Sequence record: OX461087
Source of the DNA: Escherichia phage EcoIv28_Lewi
Length of the DNA stretch: 48,435 nucleotides
Strand: one strand, 5' to 3'
Under the pieces are notes generated by a model that ran no database searches, was not told where the DNA came from, and saw only the letters and a program-made list of their open reading frames with translations. How positions within the stretch are numbered: position 1 is the stretch's first letter; every line of letters starts with the position of its first letter. Made by a program: the position numbers and the translations under genes. Positions 19,247-38,177 of this stretch are shown piece after piece.

Positions 19247-19278
19247 AAAAACCCTCCAGATGGAGGGTTTCTTTTATC
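19247..19278. terminator. bidirectional rho-independent terminator
   Basis: Hairpin AAACCCTCC-AGAT-GGAGGGTTT plus T-run. Confidence 0.6.
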
Positions 19279-20227
19279 TGCTAACTGACATTTTCTCTAT
19301 CAACTCGCCAGCATCATAAATCTTTCTTCTGATTCTCTTCGCCATCCTGATTGTGTCCGCATCATCAGGCAGCATCACCGTAAGCCCTGCGTTTTCCGCA
19401 GCGCAAAGTTCGTCAAATTTATAATTAACTATGCAGCGTAACCGTGCTTTCGTCTCATCACTAACAGAACGCACCACTTCCCACATGTTTTCCGGCGACC
19501 AGCAGCACCAGACATGTGCGCCAGTGAAGTAATGGCATTTCCACGCATCGGCATAATCGGACACCAGATAAATGAACTTCCCGTTATCTTCTCCGATTGG
19601 GCTTATCGCGCCACGAGTGAGTTTTCCGTTGATGGCTGAGTCCTTGTTGTATCCTGCGCGGAAAAAAGTTCTGAATGAATCATCATCCATGCCAATGAAT
19701 GCCACGTTGCACGGCTTCATTGTGTCAGCGCGCATCATCTCAACCGCAATAAGCTCTCCAGATTTCCCTCTGACGACGTTAACGTCGCAACCAATACCAT
19801 TTATCAATGTCCACTCATTCATCGCGACACGCGTCGTTTTATCCATGATTGCGGCGACTTCCTGCTCGGTGATGAAGTCGTCGTTATAATTTATCTTCGG
19901 TAACTCCTTCCTGATTGCCTCCAGCTTTTCGCGTGGATGCATATTCAGGAATCCTCCCAGAGCCTCCAGTGCTTCTGGAAAGCTCATGCCAGAGAGTTTC
20001 ATCAGCCAGTTCATGCCGCTACCGGAACCGCACTGATTGCAGATTGCACCGCCATCGCCTTTTGTTTCGAAGTTGTCATCAAAGCGATACCTGTCTTTTC
20101 CTGAGCATGATGGGCATGGCTGGTGCTTGCCATTGAAAACTCTGCTATCCACATTGACGATGGACATGATGGCAGCCTGCCAGTTTCTGAGCATTTTTTG
20201 CTCGATTTCCTTCCAGTCGTATCTCAT
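19274..20227 (-). CDS. DNA primase (zinc-ribbon plus TOPRIM-like)
   Basis: Motif HQPCPSCSGKDRYRF...CNQCG typical of the primase zinc ribbon; start trimmed to ATG with AGGAAG RBS. Confidence 0.7.
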   Translation of the reverse strand: MRYDWKEIEQKMLRNWQAAIMSIVNVDSRVFNGKHQPCPSCSGKDRYRFDDNFETKGDGGAICNQCGSGSGMNWLMKLSGMSFPEALEALGGFLNMHPREKLEAIRKELPKINYNDDFITEQEVAAIMDKTTRVAMNEWTLINGIGCDVNVVRGKSGELIAVEMMRADTMKPCNVAFIGMDDDSFRTFFRAGYNKDSAINGKLTRGAISPIGEDNGKFIYLVSDYADAWKCHYFTGAHVWCCWSPENMWEVVRSVSDETKARLRCIVNYKFDELCAAENAGLTVMLPDDADTIRMAKRIRRKIYDAGELIEKMSVSR

Positions 20228-20239
20228 AAAATCTTCCTG

Positions 20240-20287
20240 TTGACGATGGTGTAGATTCATTGTAATTTACTCGCATGAAACAATCAA
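20240..20287. promoter_or_regulatory. divergent promoters (primase, minus; HNH/helicase block, plus)
   Basis: Plus: TTGACG...TGTAGATT...TAATTT; minus: TTGATT-N17-TACAAT. Confidence 0.45.
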
Positions 20288-20299
20288 TCGTTACTCGCA

Positions 20300-20947
20300 A
20301 TGAAACAATTAATCGTTACAATAGAGGGTAAGAAATGGCTATCACCATCAAGAAGTGCGAGGTTTGCGGAAATGAGTTTATCGGAACTGCAAAAGCAAAA
20401 TGTTGCTCAGGAAAGTGCAGGGTTAAAAAATGCAGGAACCAAAAGAAAGTCACACATTTCACAGGAGAGGTTAAGGGAGGTTCTTGATTACAACCCTGAT
20501 ACTGGTTATTTCACTTGGATTGTCAGGCTTGGAGCAAGGACTCAGATAGGTGGAAAGCCAGGTACTGTTGATGCTGGTGGTTACCTTAAAATAGCGGTTG
20601 ACGGAAAGGCTTTTATGGCGCATCGCCTTGCTTGGATTTACTTTTATGGAGGAGATATATCAAATTCAGAAATTGACCATATTAACGGCAACAGGATGGA
20701 TAACAGGATATCTAACCTTAGGTTAGCTAACAGAAGTGAAAACAATTGGAACCAAAAGATAAAAAATAGCAACAACTCAGGGGTCAAGGGTGTTAGTTGG
20801 GATAAGGGAGCCAAAAAATGGAGAGCTCAATGTATGGTTAATGGAGTGAAGTATTTCATTGGGAGATTCAATAATATTTCAGATGCAGAGCAGGCTGTGG
20901 TTTCTTTTTGTAGAAAATTCCATGGTAAATTCGTAAACAACGGGTGA
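20300..20947 (+). CDS. HNH-AP2 homing endonuclease (start uncertain; possible frameshift with upstream zinc ribbon)
   Basis: Motif EIDHINGNRMDNRISNLR plus AP2-like C-terminus; conserved LDYNPDTG begins ~57 codons into the track ORF. Confidence 0.65.
   Translation: MKQLIVTIEGKKWLSPSRSARFAEMSLSELQKQNVAQESAGLKNAGTKRKSHISQERLREVLDYNPDTGYFTWIVRLGARTQIGGKPGTVDAGGYLKIAVDGKAFMAHRLAWIYFYGGDISNSEIDHINGNRMDNRISNLRLANRSENNWNQKIKNSNNSGVKGVSWDKGAKKWRAQCMVNGVKYFIGRFNNISDAEQAVVSFCRKFHGKFVNNG
20335..20487 (+). CDS. small zinc-ribbon ORF (~50 aa) out of frame with the downstream HNH domain
   Basis: ATG after GAGGG RBS; CEVCGN...CCSGKC pattern; ends where the conserved HNH N-terminus begins in another frame. 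Confidence 0.35.
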   Translation: MAITIKKCEVCGNEFIGTAKAKCCSGKCRVKKCRNQKKVTHFTGEVKGGS

Positions 20948-20951
20948 TGAA

Positions 20952-22886
20952 ATGCACAAAATAGACAAAATGATTTCAGAGATTGACATTGAGAAGTTAA
21001 AGAAATCAATAAAATTAGGTTCAATAGAGCCATATGATTACCAATGGCTTGTTTACGCAAAGTGCGCTGAGGTTATTCGTAATTTTGGCAAGAAACCTGA
21101 ACCAAGCTATGTTACAGCGTCGGTTTCATCAGGGAAGACGGTGATGATTTCAATGCTTTGCAGTAGATTTCAGGATATGGGGTGGGATGGTCTTGTGATT
21201 TCAAGGCAGGGGGAAATAGCCGAGCAGAATGCTGAAATGATGTGGGAGTGCGGTGTAAAAAACTCTCTTTATAGTGCATCTCTTGGCAGGAAAAGCACAG
21301 CATATCCTATTATATGCGGCACTGAAGGAACAATCGTGAACGCACTTTTTGATAAAAAAGATGAATCAAATGGTGACGTTAAGAAAGGTGGGTTGAGTGA
21401 TTTTACCCCAAGATTTTGCCTTTGCGATGAAGGGCACCAAGTACCGTGGCAGGACATTGTCGGTGGTGAACCAACAACACAGTATGGCGTTATACTTACC
21501 GAGTTAAATCGGCGCTGTAAGGCAAAGTATGGACATGACATGATAACTATCGGATTCACTGGAAGCCCTTTCCGTGGCACCGAGTCAATGAAAGGTGCGT
21601 ATTGGAAGAATGAAATAATAAACATTGACACAAAGTACATGGTAGATCGCGGATTTGTTGTTCCAACAATCTTTGGACTTCATGATGTTGATGATTTGCA
21701 ATACGACCTTTCATCATTTCATGGCTCTGATATTGACGGGACGCAGGATTTCACTGCTGAACAACTTAAGCAGATGCAGGAAGAAATACTTGAACAAGGC
21801 ACTCTCACACAGAAAATCATGCTTAAAGTGATGGAGCTTACAAAAGATAGAAATGGAGTGTTAATTACCTGTGCAGGCAAGAAGCATTGTTTAGAAGCTG
21901 CTAAATATCTGCCAGAAGGAAGCTACGCCATTGTCACTGAAGATATGGGGCAAAAAGCAAGACGTAAGGCACTAAAGGATGCATACACTGGAAAAATAAA
22001 ATACACATTCCAGATCGCCGCGCTTACGACAGGAGTCAACATTCCGCTTTGGGATACAAGCGTGATATTACGAAAAATAATGTCGCTCACCCTTCTTGTT
22101 CAGTTGCTTGGTCGCGGTATGCGACTGCTGAAGAAAGAGCAAATTGATGCCGGGTATCATAAAGAAGACCATCTGGTTCTTGATTTCTCAGGCACGATGT
22201 TTGAGCTTGGTCAGTTGTATGAAGACCCAATTCTGGAAGAGGCCGAAGCGCAACGCTCAAAACGCAGTGGAGAACAGGTTCCGTGCCCGAAATGCGGAAC
22301 GATGAACAGCCCATATGCGCGTCGCTGCATTGGCAAAGATGCGCTATCGCCAGATGGTCGTTGCGAAGAGTTTTTCAGTTATATCCGCTGTGGATTTGAT
22401 AAGCACGGTATCCGCATTTTTGATGATGGTTGCGGAACTAAAAACGACCCTACGGCGCGCTATTGCCGACATTGCGATCATGTTTTGCGCGACCCTAATG
22501 CGGCTCTTAATGAACGTGCCTATACGGATAACGAATGGGCTGATGTTATGGATTTCAAGGTTCAGTTAACGAAGGACGGAGAAGGTATTTTGTATCGCTA
22601 CTGGATTAATCGTTGTGATGGCAAAGAGGGCTGGGCTAACGAGGTTTTCTACCCTTACGGCGGAGCAACCCACATGAAAAACATGTTCAAGGCAAAGGCC
22701 ATCTTCCCTCACCTTGATGATAAATCAATAGCTGGGAAAATCCTGAAATGCCAGAACGCCAAGCAGTTCATGATGTATGCGGGGTTGATTAAAGCGCCAA
22801 AACGCATCACACATCGTATTAACGATAAAGGCCGTGACATAATACACAGAAAAGATTTTGCAGGTGAGCAAAGTGAAGCAGCTTGA
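20952..22886 (+). CDS. SF2 (DEAH-type) helicase with C-terminal zinc ribbon
   Basis: Walker A SSGKT, motif II DEGHQ, C-terminal CPKCG...CRHCDH. Confidence 0.85.
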   Translation: MHKIDKMISEIDIEKLKKSIKLGSIEPYDYQWLVYAKCAEVIRNFGKKPEPSYVTASVSSGKTVMISMLCSRFQDMGWDGLVISRQGEIAEQNAEMMWECGVKNSLYSASLGRKSTAYPIICGTEGTIVNALFDKKDESNGDVKKGGLSDFTPRFCLCDEGHQVPWQDIVGGEPTTQYGVILTELNRRCKAKYGHDMITIGFTGSPFRGTESMKGAYWKNEIINIDTKYMVDRGFVVPTIFGLHDVDDLQYDLSSFHGSDIDGTQDFTAEQLKQMQEEILEQGTLTQKIMLKVMELTKDRNGVLITCAGKKHCLEAAKYLPEGSYAIVTEDMGQKARRKALKDAYTGKIKYTFQIAALTTGVNIPLWDTSVILRKIMSLTLLVQLLGRGMRLLKKEQIDAGYHKEDHLVLDFSGTMFELGQLYEDPILEEAEAQRSKRSGEQVPCPKCGTMNSPYARRCIGKDALSPDGRCEEFFSYIRCGFDKHGIRIFDDGCGTKNDPTARYCRHCDHVLRDPNAALNERAYTDNEWADVMDFKVQLTKDGEGILYRYWINRCDGKEGWANEVFYPYGGATHMKNMFKAKAIFPHLDDKSIAGKILKCQNAKQFMMYAGLIKAPKRITHRINDKGRDIIHRKDFAGEQSEAA

Positions 22887-37093: not shown

Positions 37094-37233
37094 ACGAGCA
37101 AACAAAAGCTGACCTGATTTTCTACACTGAACTGTATGTTGATGCGGGTTACGATTACGAAGAAGCTGAACGCATGGCGAAAGACTTGCTTCGTGTGATT
37201 GGTGTGATTTTTGATGAGGATAAGGTGATATGA
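37090..37233 (+). CDS. small hypothetical protein (47 aa)
   Basis: ATGA-coupled ORF between the two neighbouring genes. Confidence 0.35.
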   Translation: MNEQTKADLIFYTELYVDAGYDYEEAERMAKDLLRVIGVIFDEDKVI

Positions 37234-37430
37234 GCCGGTGGATTAGGTGTAGTGAGCGGATGCCTGAAGGTGACGAGATGGTTCTTACAGCATTTCGTGG
37301 TGTCGTTAGAACTGCGATATGTAAAGTTGTCGACAACATTGGCAGCAAGATATTTGTTAGTGAATTAGACCGCTGTCACGGAATTCCAGCCACCCATTGG
37401 TCTAAATCACCACAACCACCACAACAATAA
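37230..37430 (+). CDS. DUF551-like protein
   Basis: W.RCSERMPE ... THWSKSPQPP pattern. Confidence 0.5.
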   Translation: MSRWIRCSERMPEGDEMVLTAFRGVVRTAICKVVDNIGSKIFVSELDRCHGIPATHWSKSPQPPQQ

Positions 37431-37432
37431 AA

Positions 37433-37459
37433 CAAAGCCCCTTTCGGGGCTTTTTCTTT
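37433..37459. terminator. bidirectional rho-independent terminator
   Basis: Hairpin AAAGCCCC-TTTC-GGGGCTTT plus T-run. Confidence 0.6.
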
Positions 37460-37460
37460 A

Positions 37461-38177
37461 TCACGATACAGTGCAAGCTGTACTGATGATAATTTCCGGG
37501 TCAGTAGACGAGTCAGTCACCGTTACGGTGTATACGCCAGCGGTCGGGCTTGCTAGTGAAGCGCCAGATTCGCCACCAACAACTACACCATCTTTGCGCC
37601 ACACGTAGGTGTAAGGAGCAACACCACCTTCAACAGCAACAGTTAACGGGCTGCCAGTCGTGCCAGTTGATTGCAGGTCGGTAGTGAATGCCAGAGGCTC
37701 AAGGCTTTCGACGGTAACGCTGTCAGAATCGTAAACCTTGAACTCAAGGCTGCCAGTCACAATGTCGTTTGTGCCGCCTTCGTAGCTGATGCTGGTGATG
37801 TTGCAGTATGCGGTAACGATAGTTGCACCAGTTACCTGACGCACCCACAAAGAAGGCTGGCGACGCGCTTTCAGTTCAGTAGCGTAAATCTCAACCAGAC
37901 GATGGAAGCCAAACTCATCGCTCGGGTCATTCTTGCGGATTTCCACCTCTGCACTGATGGTCATATCAGAGCTGGTAACGAGAGTGGAAACAAAACCGCC
38001 AGCGGTATCCGCTTCAGACGTAGTGGTCTGCGGCGAGTAGTCAACACCTTTACTGGTGGTTGATCCTAAATATTTCCAGTCTTCTGCATCCGGAACTGCG
38101 TCACCGCACCCTTCAGCAAGGAACAGTCGTGTCATGCGACCGACCAGAACGCCTTTATCATTTGCACAAATAGCCAT
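37461..38177 (-). CDS. major tail protein with C-terminal Ig-like domain
   Basis: 238 aa; C-terminus (GVAPYTYVWRKDGVVVGG...YTVTVTD) looks like a bacterial Ig-like domain; own extended -10 TGATATAAT upstream. Confidence 0.7.
   Translation of the reverse strand: MAICANDKGVLVGRMTRLFLAEGCGDAVPDAEDWKYLGSTTSKGVDYSPQTTTSEADTAGGFVSTLVTSSDMTISAEVEIRKNDPSDEFGFHRLVEIYATELKARRQPSLWVRQVTGATIVTAYCNITSISYEGGTNDIVTGSLEFKVYDSDSVTVESLEPLAFTTDLQSTGTTGSPLTVAVEGGVAPYTYVWRKDGVVVGGESGASLASPTAGVYTVTVTDSSTDPEIIISTACTVS

Follow-up and report, generated by a model that had tools for sequence, protein, structure and literature searches.

Genes that lie within or across one another out of frame are familiar in phages from lambda Rz/Rz1, the overlaps of phiX174 and the lysis gene of MS2, all of which are fixed parts of one genome. 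In the insertion sequence IS1, the InsA/InsAB' pair combines a zinc-finger regulator with a frameshift-fused transposase made at a defined -1 slippery site (A6C). Among the free-standing homing endonuclease open reading frames (ORFs) of phage T4, five of 12 overlap the upstream gene by 1 to 23 bp, an overlap interpreted as limiting translation, and I-TevI represses its own promoter via an operator, with a zinc-finger-containing DNA-binding part involved (PMC2988022). Extra zinc-ribbon domains at the N or C terminus of phage HNH enzymes are common (PMC3592412). Here we analyze a stretch of 48,435 nucleotides (nt) from Escherichia phage EcoIv28_Lewi (record OX461087; the window), in which an ORF for a small zinc-finger protein overlaps, out of frame, the ORF of an HNH endonuclease. 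The initial annotation of this locus had offered three readings of the pair: a frameshift, a pseudogene, or two genes.

We consider it likely that these are two real overlapping genes of a free-standing homing-endonuclease cassette between the primase and helicase genes, with the nuclease independently initiated, and we propose the zinc protein as the autoregulator of the cassette. Gene 1 would encode a 50-amino acid (aa) Cys4 zinc-finger protein with a basic helix, and gene 2 an HNH_3+AP2 endonuclease translated from its own Shine-Dalgarno (SD) sequence and ATG inside gene 1, so that recoding would be unneeded.

Results

Reading frames of the zinc-finger and endonuclease genes

The features that define the two genes are as follows.

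20335 to 20487, plus strand: small Cys4 zinc-finger protein gene, 50 aa, called from its intactness in at least 42 loci and from the ratio of nonsynonymous to synonymous variation (pN/pS).
20323 to 20328, plus strand: SD-like AGAGGG, 6 nt before the zinc ATG, conserved as AGAGG or AGGAG in most clades.
20372 to 20947, plus strand: predicted coding sequence of the HNH_3 plus AP2-like homing endonuclease, 191 aa, read +1 to the zinc ORF, which it overlaps by 116 nt.
20359 to 20363, plus strand: GAGGT, candidate SD of the endonuclease, inside the zinc ORF and 8 nt before the ATG at 20372; a ribosome-binding site is annotated at the equivalent bases in phage Skate.
20300 to 20371, plus strand: probably spurious 5' extension of the maximal endonuclease ORF, with its ATG in an operator-like repeat and stops in relatives.

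The zinc ORF runs from the ATG at 20335 to a TGA at 20485-20487, and its product is MAITIKKCEVCGNEFIGTAKAKCCSGKCRVKKCRNQKKVTHFTGEVKGGS. The N-terminal stretch, MAITIKKCEVCGNEFIGTAKAKCCSGKCRVKKCRNQKK, has its cysteines arranged as Cys-x2-Cys ... Cys-x3-Cys, after which comes a run of basic residues. The maximal endonuclease ORF (20300-20947, 215 aa) is offset from the zinc frame by one base to the right, and the zinc TGA sits on the Leu-Asp of the motif LDYNPDTG (codons L62 at 20483-20485 and D63 at 20486-20488). The description in the initial annotation is thus borne out in its essentials: a well-formed zinc ORF begins at about 20335 behind a good ribosome-binding site, it ends where LDYNPDTG starts in another frame, and a +1 shift would fuse the two ORFs.

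We translated thirteen annotated phage loci in three frames, and scans of viral and metagenome contigs raised the total to at least 42 distinct loci (numbered below with the prefix L). The zinc ORF was intact at all of them, in isolates and metagenomes alike. The nuclease frame was +1 to it at all 13 annotated loci and at the at least 42 loci overall, and neither an in-frame fusion nor a +2 relation was ever seen. The annotated loci include a Klebsiella phage (72% nucleotide identity) and Vibrio phages with a different passenger protein, and the out-of-frame layout is kept down to 50 to 55% aa identity. Since this layout is the same in at least 42 loci, it is ancient and maintained.

This result bears on the possibility that a once-fused gene was broken up, by an indel introduced in sequencing or assembly or by a recent frameshift that made it a pseudogene. 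Such an origin is suggested only by the superficial look of one sequence, in which the two ORFs could be joined by a 1-nt change in an A6 run. Against it, at least 42 loci that were sequenced independently share the layout, with zinc proteins as little as about 50% identical; in most of these both ORFs are intact, and both frames bear the signatures of selection for working genes. We give it practically no weight, and we regard assembly error and pseudogenization, both raised in the initial annotation, as excluded because the layout is conserved across diverged homologs that include those of Vibrio and Klebsiella phages. In the homologs the zinc gene proved to be separate and conserved, with no intact fusion, which is the outcome that the initial annotation had named as refuting its other readings; the LPST10 record, the only one that lists both genes, carries it as LPST10_00001. 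Of the three readings first offered, then, that of two genes was upheld, that of a pseudogene failed, and that of a frameshift found no support in view of the apparently selected internal start described below.

At three loci the nuclease ORF is cut by stops, leaving 102 codons in L007 (Escherichia phage Bas81), 107 in L039 and 88 in L052, and the zinc ORF is intact. Here the homing endonuclease seems to be decaying and its leader gene to have survived. The region of the Bas81 module carries no annotation in its record.

Coding constraint in the zinc frame

The functional part of the zinc protein appears to span about residues 1 to 38, with C8, C11, C24 and C28 (C-x2-C-x12-C-x3-C) followed by a basic helix, R29...R34..KK. 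The four cysteines are invariant and are kept through TGC/TGT changes, and K6, K7, F15, G17, T18, A21, R29 and R34 are likewise invariant over synonymous change. The codons of R29 and R34 vary among AGG, AGA, CGA and CGT, all synonymous in the zinc frame, with the consequence in the +1 frame that Gly becomes Asp or Glu. The pN/pS values of the three frames, computed across nine diverged clades, were as follows.

Codons 1 to 16: zinc frame 0.27; +1 frame 1.05; +2 frame 1.39.
Codons 17 to 36: zinc frame 0.44; +1 frame 1.03; +2 frame 0.88.

These values point to purifying selection on the zinc frame and to a neutral overlapping +1 reading. Because of the residues that stay invariant over synonymous changes and the low pN/pS of the zinc frame, we conclude that the zinc ORF, whose preservation goes far beyond chance, codes for a real protein, at least to about residue 38. 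Beyond codon 38 the tail varies in sequence and length (41 to 59 codons in total), and within the LDYNP group codons 39 to 50 have a pN/pS of 2.05, that is, they are unconstrained.

An AlphaFold2 (AF2) model of the zinc protein, of low confidence (predicted local distance difference test, pLDDT, 60), has a Cys-knuckle hairpin at residues 5 to 16, a helix at residues 26 to 39 that bears the basic residues and has the last Cys pair at its N terminus, and a disordered tail. On this low-confidence model a treble clef (a Cys knuckle plus Cys at the helix N terminus) would be more likely than a classical zinc ribbon; of the original label "zinc ribbon", the Cys4 zinc finger holds and the classical ribbon probably does not.

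No Pfam family matched the 50-aa ORF of the window at E <= 0.1, searches of solved structures (PDB), Pfam and NCBIfam with the zinc protein returned nothing significant, a PHROG search gave weak matches only, and a scan of a genome collection for the zinc module yielded no confirmed locus. A profile search with the zinc ORF returned 218 proteins at E <= 1e-3 among 1.84 billion representatives. Many of these are standalone ORFs of 40 to 55 aa beginning MAI..K.C, tandem arrays of up to a dozen copies, or N-terminal domains, and no close fusion to HNH_3 was found among the 218 in this exhaustive profile search. Some of the relatives match Pfam DUF2116 ("probable treble clef") and, weakly, the N terminus of lambda NinG. 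PF09889 was matched only by remote relatives (P0124, E 1e-12), and related zinc modules form families of their own.

These data also bear on whether the zinc ORF might be a mere translated leader, an upstream ORF whose translation controls the endonuclease, or whether the endonuclease might instead start at the ATG at 20300. The overlap and the proximity of the two starts would suit purely translational control, and several records annotate the long ORF. We nevertheless judge this improbable for the leader, since its peptide is strongly conserved with synonymous variation beneath the invariant residues, the ORF persists without any endonuclease, and its relatives make up separate families, and also for the long ORF, given the following evidence on its start.

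Start of the endonuclease frame

The ATG at 20300 is made by the first three bases of a 20-nt operator-like repeat in the promoter spacer, upstream of the -10 element, and the stretch equivalent to 20300-20371 contains stop codons in 12 of 23 lineages. The initial annotation had noted that this upstream extension of the HNH ORF looks less protein-like, which agrees with the stops in relatives and with a pN/pS of about 1. The ATG at 20300 is thus almost certainly not the endonuclease start, and because it lies in the repeat upstream of the -10 and the extension has stops in relatives, we place the predicted coding sequence at 20372-20947. A start equivalent to 20372 is annotated in the records of phages Vi II-E1, SB28, DS8 and Skate.

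The endonuclease matches PF13392 (HNH_3) with E 2.9e-15 and 56 bits, against a cut-off of 24.8, over profile positions 2 to 45 of 46, and it matches phrog_99 with E 1.5e-67. The AP2 domain (PF00847) scores 20 bits in this protein, under the cut-off of 33.3, and most close homologs bear a precomputed PF00847 match. The gene behaves as a mobile gene, with an empty site in relatives, other nuclease bodies at the same site, and the module at a second genome site. The usual HNH_3+AP2 homologs are 160 to 170 aa long and start 3 to 10 residues before L.Y..(E/D)TG, for example MITQNRLKELLLYRPETG. Because typical homologs begin so close to this motif, the first 25 to 29 or so residues of the endonuclease are best read as an unconstrained leader taken from the alternative frame of the zinc gene. 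The constraint lies on the nuclease frame from about ISQERL on: there the Klebsiella phage differs from the window by changes that are silent for E and L in the nuclease frame and radical in the zinc frame.

An internal start and a frameshift both predict that the constrained frame switches near codons 34 to 42; what separates them is the demand that each makes on the +1 frame before the switch. We compared 23 lineages in 11 clades, with chance expectations computed from the peptide of each clade and the codon usage of this phage. An ATG in the +1 frame was present inside the zinc ORF in all 23 lineages, at one of four positions.

Zinc codon 9: made by CAT-G.
Zinc codon 11: made by AAT-G.
Zinc codon 13: made by AAT-G; the window, at 20372.
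Zinc codon 15/16: made by TAT-G or CAT-G.

The chance of such an ATG is 0.47 to 0.74 per clade, and the product over the 11 clades is about 1.5e-3. In three clades (L055, L062 and L068) Y16 is encoded by TAC, with loss of the codon-16 ATG, and another ATG is present upstream; in three loci of the wider set (L013, L031 and L032) GTG replaces ATG at codon 13. Between the internal ATG and the nuclease core, none of the 23 lineages had a stop in the +1 frame (per-clade chance 0.35 to 1.0, product about 2e-3), and upstream of the internal ATG 12 of the 23 did. The codons of the dipeptide [V/L]30-K31 are limited to GTT, GTC, CTT or CTC for the first residue, while a similar dipeptide at codons 5 and 6 freely uses TTG, CTG, GTA or ATG, codons that give rise to a TGA or TAA in the +1 reading.

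An SD-like 4-mer stands 4 to 11 nt before the +1 ATG in eight of the 11 clades, and these 4-mers arise from different zinc residues according to clade (C-E-V, G-R-E, G-E, K-E, E-E or K-R-E). SD, ATG and open frame occurred together in eight of 11 clades against about 1.2 expected (per-clade probabilities 0.02 to 0.28). The movement of both the ATG and the SD between clades argues for repeated selection, and the comparison as a whole favors an internal start in the +1 frame over a frameshift.

Signals for recoding

We weighed this probable internal start against two kinds of recoding that would fuse the zinc finger to the endonuclease in the manner of IS1 InsA/InsAB': a programmed +1 shift of the ribosome, and slippage during transcription, on the A-rich Lys codons (A6 at 20425-20430; CAAAAGAAAG at about 20440-20449). 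Several observations speak for fusion. The +1 relation holds at every locus, and only a few codons lie between the start of the nuclease core and the point where conservation of the zinc frame ends. Nearly every locus has A-rich Lys runs, the nuclease of the window has no start near its core, and one locus (L034) lacks an internal start. Finally, a zinc module lies in cis with a visible HNH motif in one protein (P0260, read from sequence; no Pfam hit), and related modules weakly match the N terminus of the NinG profile.

The junctions themselves offered little to sustain it. No conserved shift heptamer, conserved stop context or rare-codon context was present at the junctions of the 23 lineages, which share only A runs of 4 to 7 in Lys codons, an ordinary product of such codons and shorter than the A/T run of about 8 or more taken as prone to slippage. 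The context of the zinc stop varies, with TCT-TGA in the LDYNP group and ACG-TGA, GGA-TAG, GCA-TGA and others elsewhere, and both position and context of the stop differ even between the near-identical L008 and L011. No stimulatory RNA structure was found near the starts or the junction (folding of 20326-20500, z = -0.54 vs shuffles). No fused zinc-HNH protein was present among 5.8 billion clustered proteins; a word-indexed search for in-frame zinc fusions gave three hits only, all of 50 aa or less, and the conceptual fusion protein as query gave no match covering the zinc part. An ATG lies near the nuclease core in L036 and L068, and a selected internal SD and ATG, like the avoidance of +1 stops upstream of any shift site, would be needless if ribosomes changed frame. 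A frameshift that fuses the two proteins is in our judgment unlikely.

Three specific candidates were rejected. The window sequence GGGAGG-T-TCT-TGA resembles prfB and would suggest a release factor 2 (RF2)-like shift at the stop, which is ruled out by the differing stop position and context in other nuclease types and between L008 and L011; the GGGAGG before the window's zinc stop is absent from the other nuclease types. Slippage by -1 on A-AAA-AAG-like strings is ruled out by a -1 frame full of stops. A protein covering 96% of the conceptual fusion (P0077) proved to be a tandem duplication of the HNH_3 unit.

Promoter region and putative operator

Upstream of the zinc gene, the following features were read from the sequence, the first of them with the help of an alignment of 13 clades.

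20294 to 20322, plus strand: putative sigma-70-type cassette promoter, with a -35-like CTCGCA/TCGCAA and the -10 TACAAT at 20317-20322.
20275 to 20294, plus strand: copy 1 of an operator-like 20-mer, ATGAAACAATCAATCGTTAC, a direct repeat that overlaps the -35 of the divergent minus-strand promoter.
20300 to 20319, plus strand: copy 2 of the operator-like 20-mer, with a palindromic core, TGAAACAATTAATCGTTACA (20301-20320), that takes up the spacer of the promoter and reaches into the -10.
20287 to 20259, minus strand: promoter-like site facing the primase gene, TTGATT-17-TACAAT.

In relatives the -35 is TTGCAA or TTGACA, with TTGACA-17-TAATAT at the Klebsiella-type loci. The CTTGCA (TTGCAA) of close relatives is CTCGCA in the window, a single change that weakens the -35 and may lower expression of the cassette in this phage. 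The SD-like AGAGGG of the zinc gene is so near the -10 that the transcript may start at it or only downstream of it.

As a rule the spacers of promoters show no conservation. Here a palindrome, TG(T/A)AACG-N6-CGTTACA, is conserved in the promoter spacer and -10 of 13 clades, and its left half-site, TG(T/A)AAC, is invariant or nearly so across these diverged clades. The 20-mer occurs twice in the window, 25 nt apart and both times in the cassette, against 0.02 copies expected. We propose the zinc protein as the palindrome binder because no other protein is shared by all cassettes and because it occurs together with the palindrome; by binding there it could repress or time the cassette promoter, a putative autoregulation. 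With the second palindrome copy, 25 nt upstream, lying over the divergent primase promoter, the zinc protein could at this site also act on that promoter.

Cassette boundaries and flanking genes

The window derives from a Jersey-like/Skatevirus-Macdonaldcampvirus-type siphophage, whose top nucleotide matches are Salmonella phages Vi II-E1 and Skate and Shigella phage DS8. By Pfam, the cassette is flanked on the left by a primase with a P4-type zinc domain (19274-20260, minus strand) and on the right by a DEAD-type helicase (20952-22886).

About 20231 to 20951, plus strand: mobile or variable cassette between the primase and helicase genes, with bounds taken from matches to relatives.

In the cassette-less relatives of the seszw group, the match to the window ends at about 20230, and the match of another relative resumes at about 20954. 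Seszw_1 and phage 6947 have an unrelated 87-aa gene at the site before the helicase gene and lack the zinc ORF and the repeats, so that the entire 5' module is missing from the empty-site phages. Because these two phages diverge at about 20230 and have neither zinc ORF nor repeats, we take about 20231-20951 to be the mobile unit. No phage record matches the full primase-to-helicase stretch, nor the full 20261-20951.

The first 160 nt or so (20261-20420, the promoter region and zinc core) are 95 to 97% identical in many phages with quite different nuclease bodies downstream, and the first 245 to 261 nt from 20261 are common to a smaller set. The similarity of 20261-20521 to other phages breaks at two recurring points, one where the zinc core ends, at about 20420, and one at the LDYNPDTG motif, at about 20505-20521. 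These recurrent breakpoints suggest recombination joints at conserved motifs, by which nuclease bodies are shuffled.

The primase ORF as listed starts at an ATG at 20260, which is covered by the -10 of the minus-strand promoter-like site. In several relatives the primase is annotated 11 codons shorter (954 nt, start MRYDWKEIE, equivalent to about 20227), and this shorter start looks more likely than the ATG at 20260. The helicase has C-terminal zinc-ribbon-like motifs at about residues 445 to 512, with weak sub-threshold matches to DUF7577, Zn_Ribbon_1 and RanBP-type domains.

Genes found behind the same front end

The genes that follow the 5' module of promoter, operator, zinc gene and embedded start belong to at least four nuclease families, and in one case the gene is no nuclease. 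The passengers are as follows.

phrog_99 (HNH_3+AP2): the window.
phrog_1035-type HNH: Bas78, L063.
phrog_953/2081: Vibrio phages L009 and L010 (annotated records), viral contigs L035 and L036.
phrog_20046-type protein: L055.

In phages Bas78 and HC6 the front end occurs at a second genome site, where a second copy of the module carries another HNH_3-type nuclease (L008, Bas78 37197-37823; L011, HC6); Bas78 thus carries two such cassettes. That site lies between a small gene downstream of a helicase and an exonuclease VIII-like gene, and it has two GTAAC-N8-GTTAC palindromes 25 nt apart.

The non-nuclease passenger is found in two metagenome contigs (L057 and L058; Ga0233411_10000693 and Ga0233410_10000104; 1201-2514), where the promoter, the zinc ORF and a perfect palindrome, GTAACG-AATAAC-CGTTAC, precede a gene for a TET-associated glycosyltransferase (TAGT; Pfam E 5e-54) with its own SD and ATG. 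No nuclease remnant was detectable in either contig, and the +1 frame closes after 63 codons. The upstream neighbor in both resembles a helicase-type protein, as read from the translated ORF; no domain search was run.

We propose that recombination joined the front-end module to several nuclease bodies. A broader idea, which we find possible but rather doubtful, is that the promoter, the palindromic operator and a zinc gene of 40 to 50 aa form a portable self-regulating expression platform with the passenger start embedded in the +1 frame. The zinc protein would then be a dedicated repressor or targeting factor for homing cassettes of enterobacterial and Vibrio phages. Recombination would have plugged four or more nuclease families into the platform, and in one case or more it is followed by a DNA-modification gene. 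A further and lesser possibility is that, in addition, a small share of the ribosomes or transcripts undergoes a +1 shift on the Lys/A run to give a zinc-finger-nuclease fusion.

Discussion

The results support two overlapping genes in one cassette that carries what appears to be its own sigma-70-type promoter. Because the zinc and endonuclease starts are only 37 nt apart, initiation at either should exclude the other, and ribosomes coming from the zinc start would sweep over the endonuclease start. Output of the endonuclease would thereby be held low.

Several points weigh against this account. The clades share ancestry, and the probability products therefore overstate significance. Three of the 11 clades are without a clear SD before the internal ATG, and in L034 the +1 frame offers no ATG, GTG or TTG from the zinc start up to the nuclease core. 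The case for use of the start at 20372 is drawn solely from selection signatures and annotation, which make that use probable. The window's own -35 is weak, and its promoter failed a simple scan. The closeness of the -10 to the zinc SD leaves the 5' end of the transcript, and thus the mode of translation of the zinc ORF, uncertain. DNA binding by the zinc protein is a candidate role only, for a protein with the low-confidence AF2 model and the lack of Pfam, NCBIfam and PDB matches given above.

The exceptional L034 (IMGVR_UViG_3300045988_097715) stands alone among the loci in having a nuclease that seems intact (208 codons) and yet no +1 start after that of the zinc gene. Its start was lost as N13-E14 became N-K, and the sole candidate start is an ATG inside the -10 region.

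The outcome is mostly a clarification, with a portable promoter-operator-zinc-finger module and its embedded +1-frame start as a by-product. For annotation it matters that the 50-aa gene is missing from most public records, in which only a single long ORF is called, in many cases with a false start like that at 20300; the correct gene calls would be 20335-20487 and 20372-20947. For surveys of recoding the locus is a negative example, in which a universal +1 relation between a domain-like ORF and an enzyme ORF mimics recoding and an embedded start explains it better. The non-toxic, low-level control of free-standing homing endonucleases outside T4 is poorly known, and the dual-coding start together with a candidate regulator and operator makes a testable model. 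The cassette also shows how unrelated nuclease bodies can swap behind one expression module.

We found no description of this zinc-gene/nuclease overlap in the literature, our coverage of which was incomplete, and we regard the arrangement as a variant of the known overlaps of endonuclease genes. What differs here is the dedicated cassette zinc gene upstream, the long dual-coding overlap and the front end common to unrelated nucleases. As with the seg and mob genes of T4, a free-standing nuclease stands between conserved replication genes, is variably present and has its start buried in an upstream ORF. Unlike in T4, that upstream ORF is a small dedicated zinc-finger gene that travels with the nuclease rather than a gene of the host phage, the overlap is 116 nt and dual-coding, and one 5' module serves at least four nuclease families.

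The likeness to I-TevI lies in an operator that overlaps the endonuclease gene's own promoter and in a zinc-finger part in control. There the endonuclease itself binds, whereas the putative binder here is a separate 50-aa protein, and the operator of the cassette is a palindrome unrelated to any demonstrated homing site. The zinc-ribbon HNH enzymes and lambda NinG (Rap) likewise place a CxxC...CSxxC module beside an HNH nuclease; unlike in the NinG-type fusion in cis, the module here is a separate polypeptide in another frame, and the window ORF falls under every Pfam threshold.

IS1 resembles the cassette in being a mobile element whose small upstream zinc-finger ORF overlaps an enzyme ORF. 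Unlike in IS1, a shift here would be +1, no conserved site is present, and an independent start appears to have been selected. Like Rz/Rz1, the phiX174 overlaps and the MS2 lysis gene, the second gene would be read from an internal start in the +1 frame, with one frame constrained in its amino acids and the other mostly kept open; unlike in those cases, the overlap is here the joint of a recombining mobile cassette.

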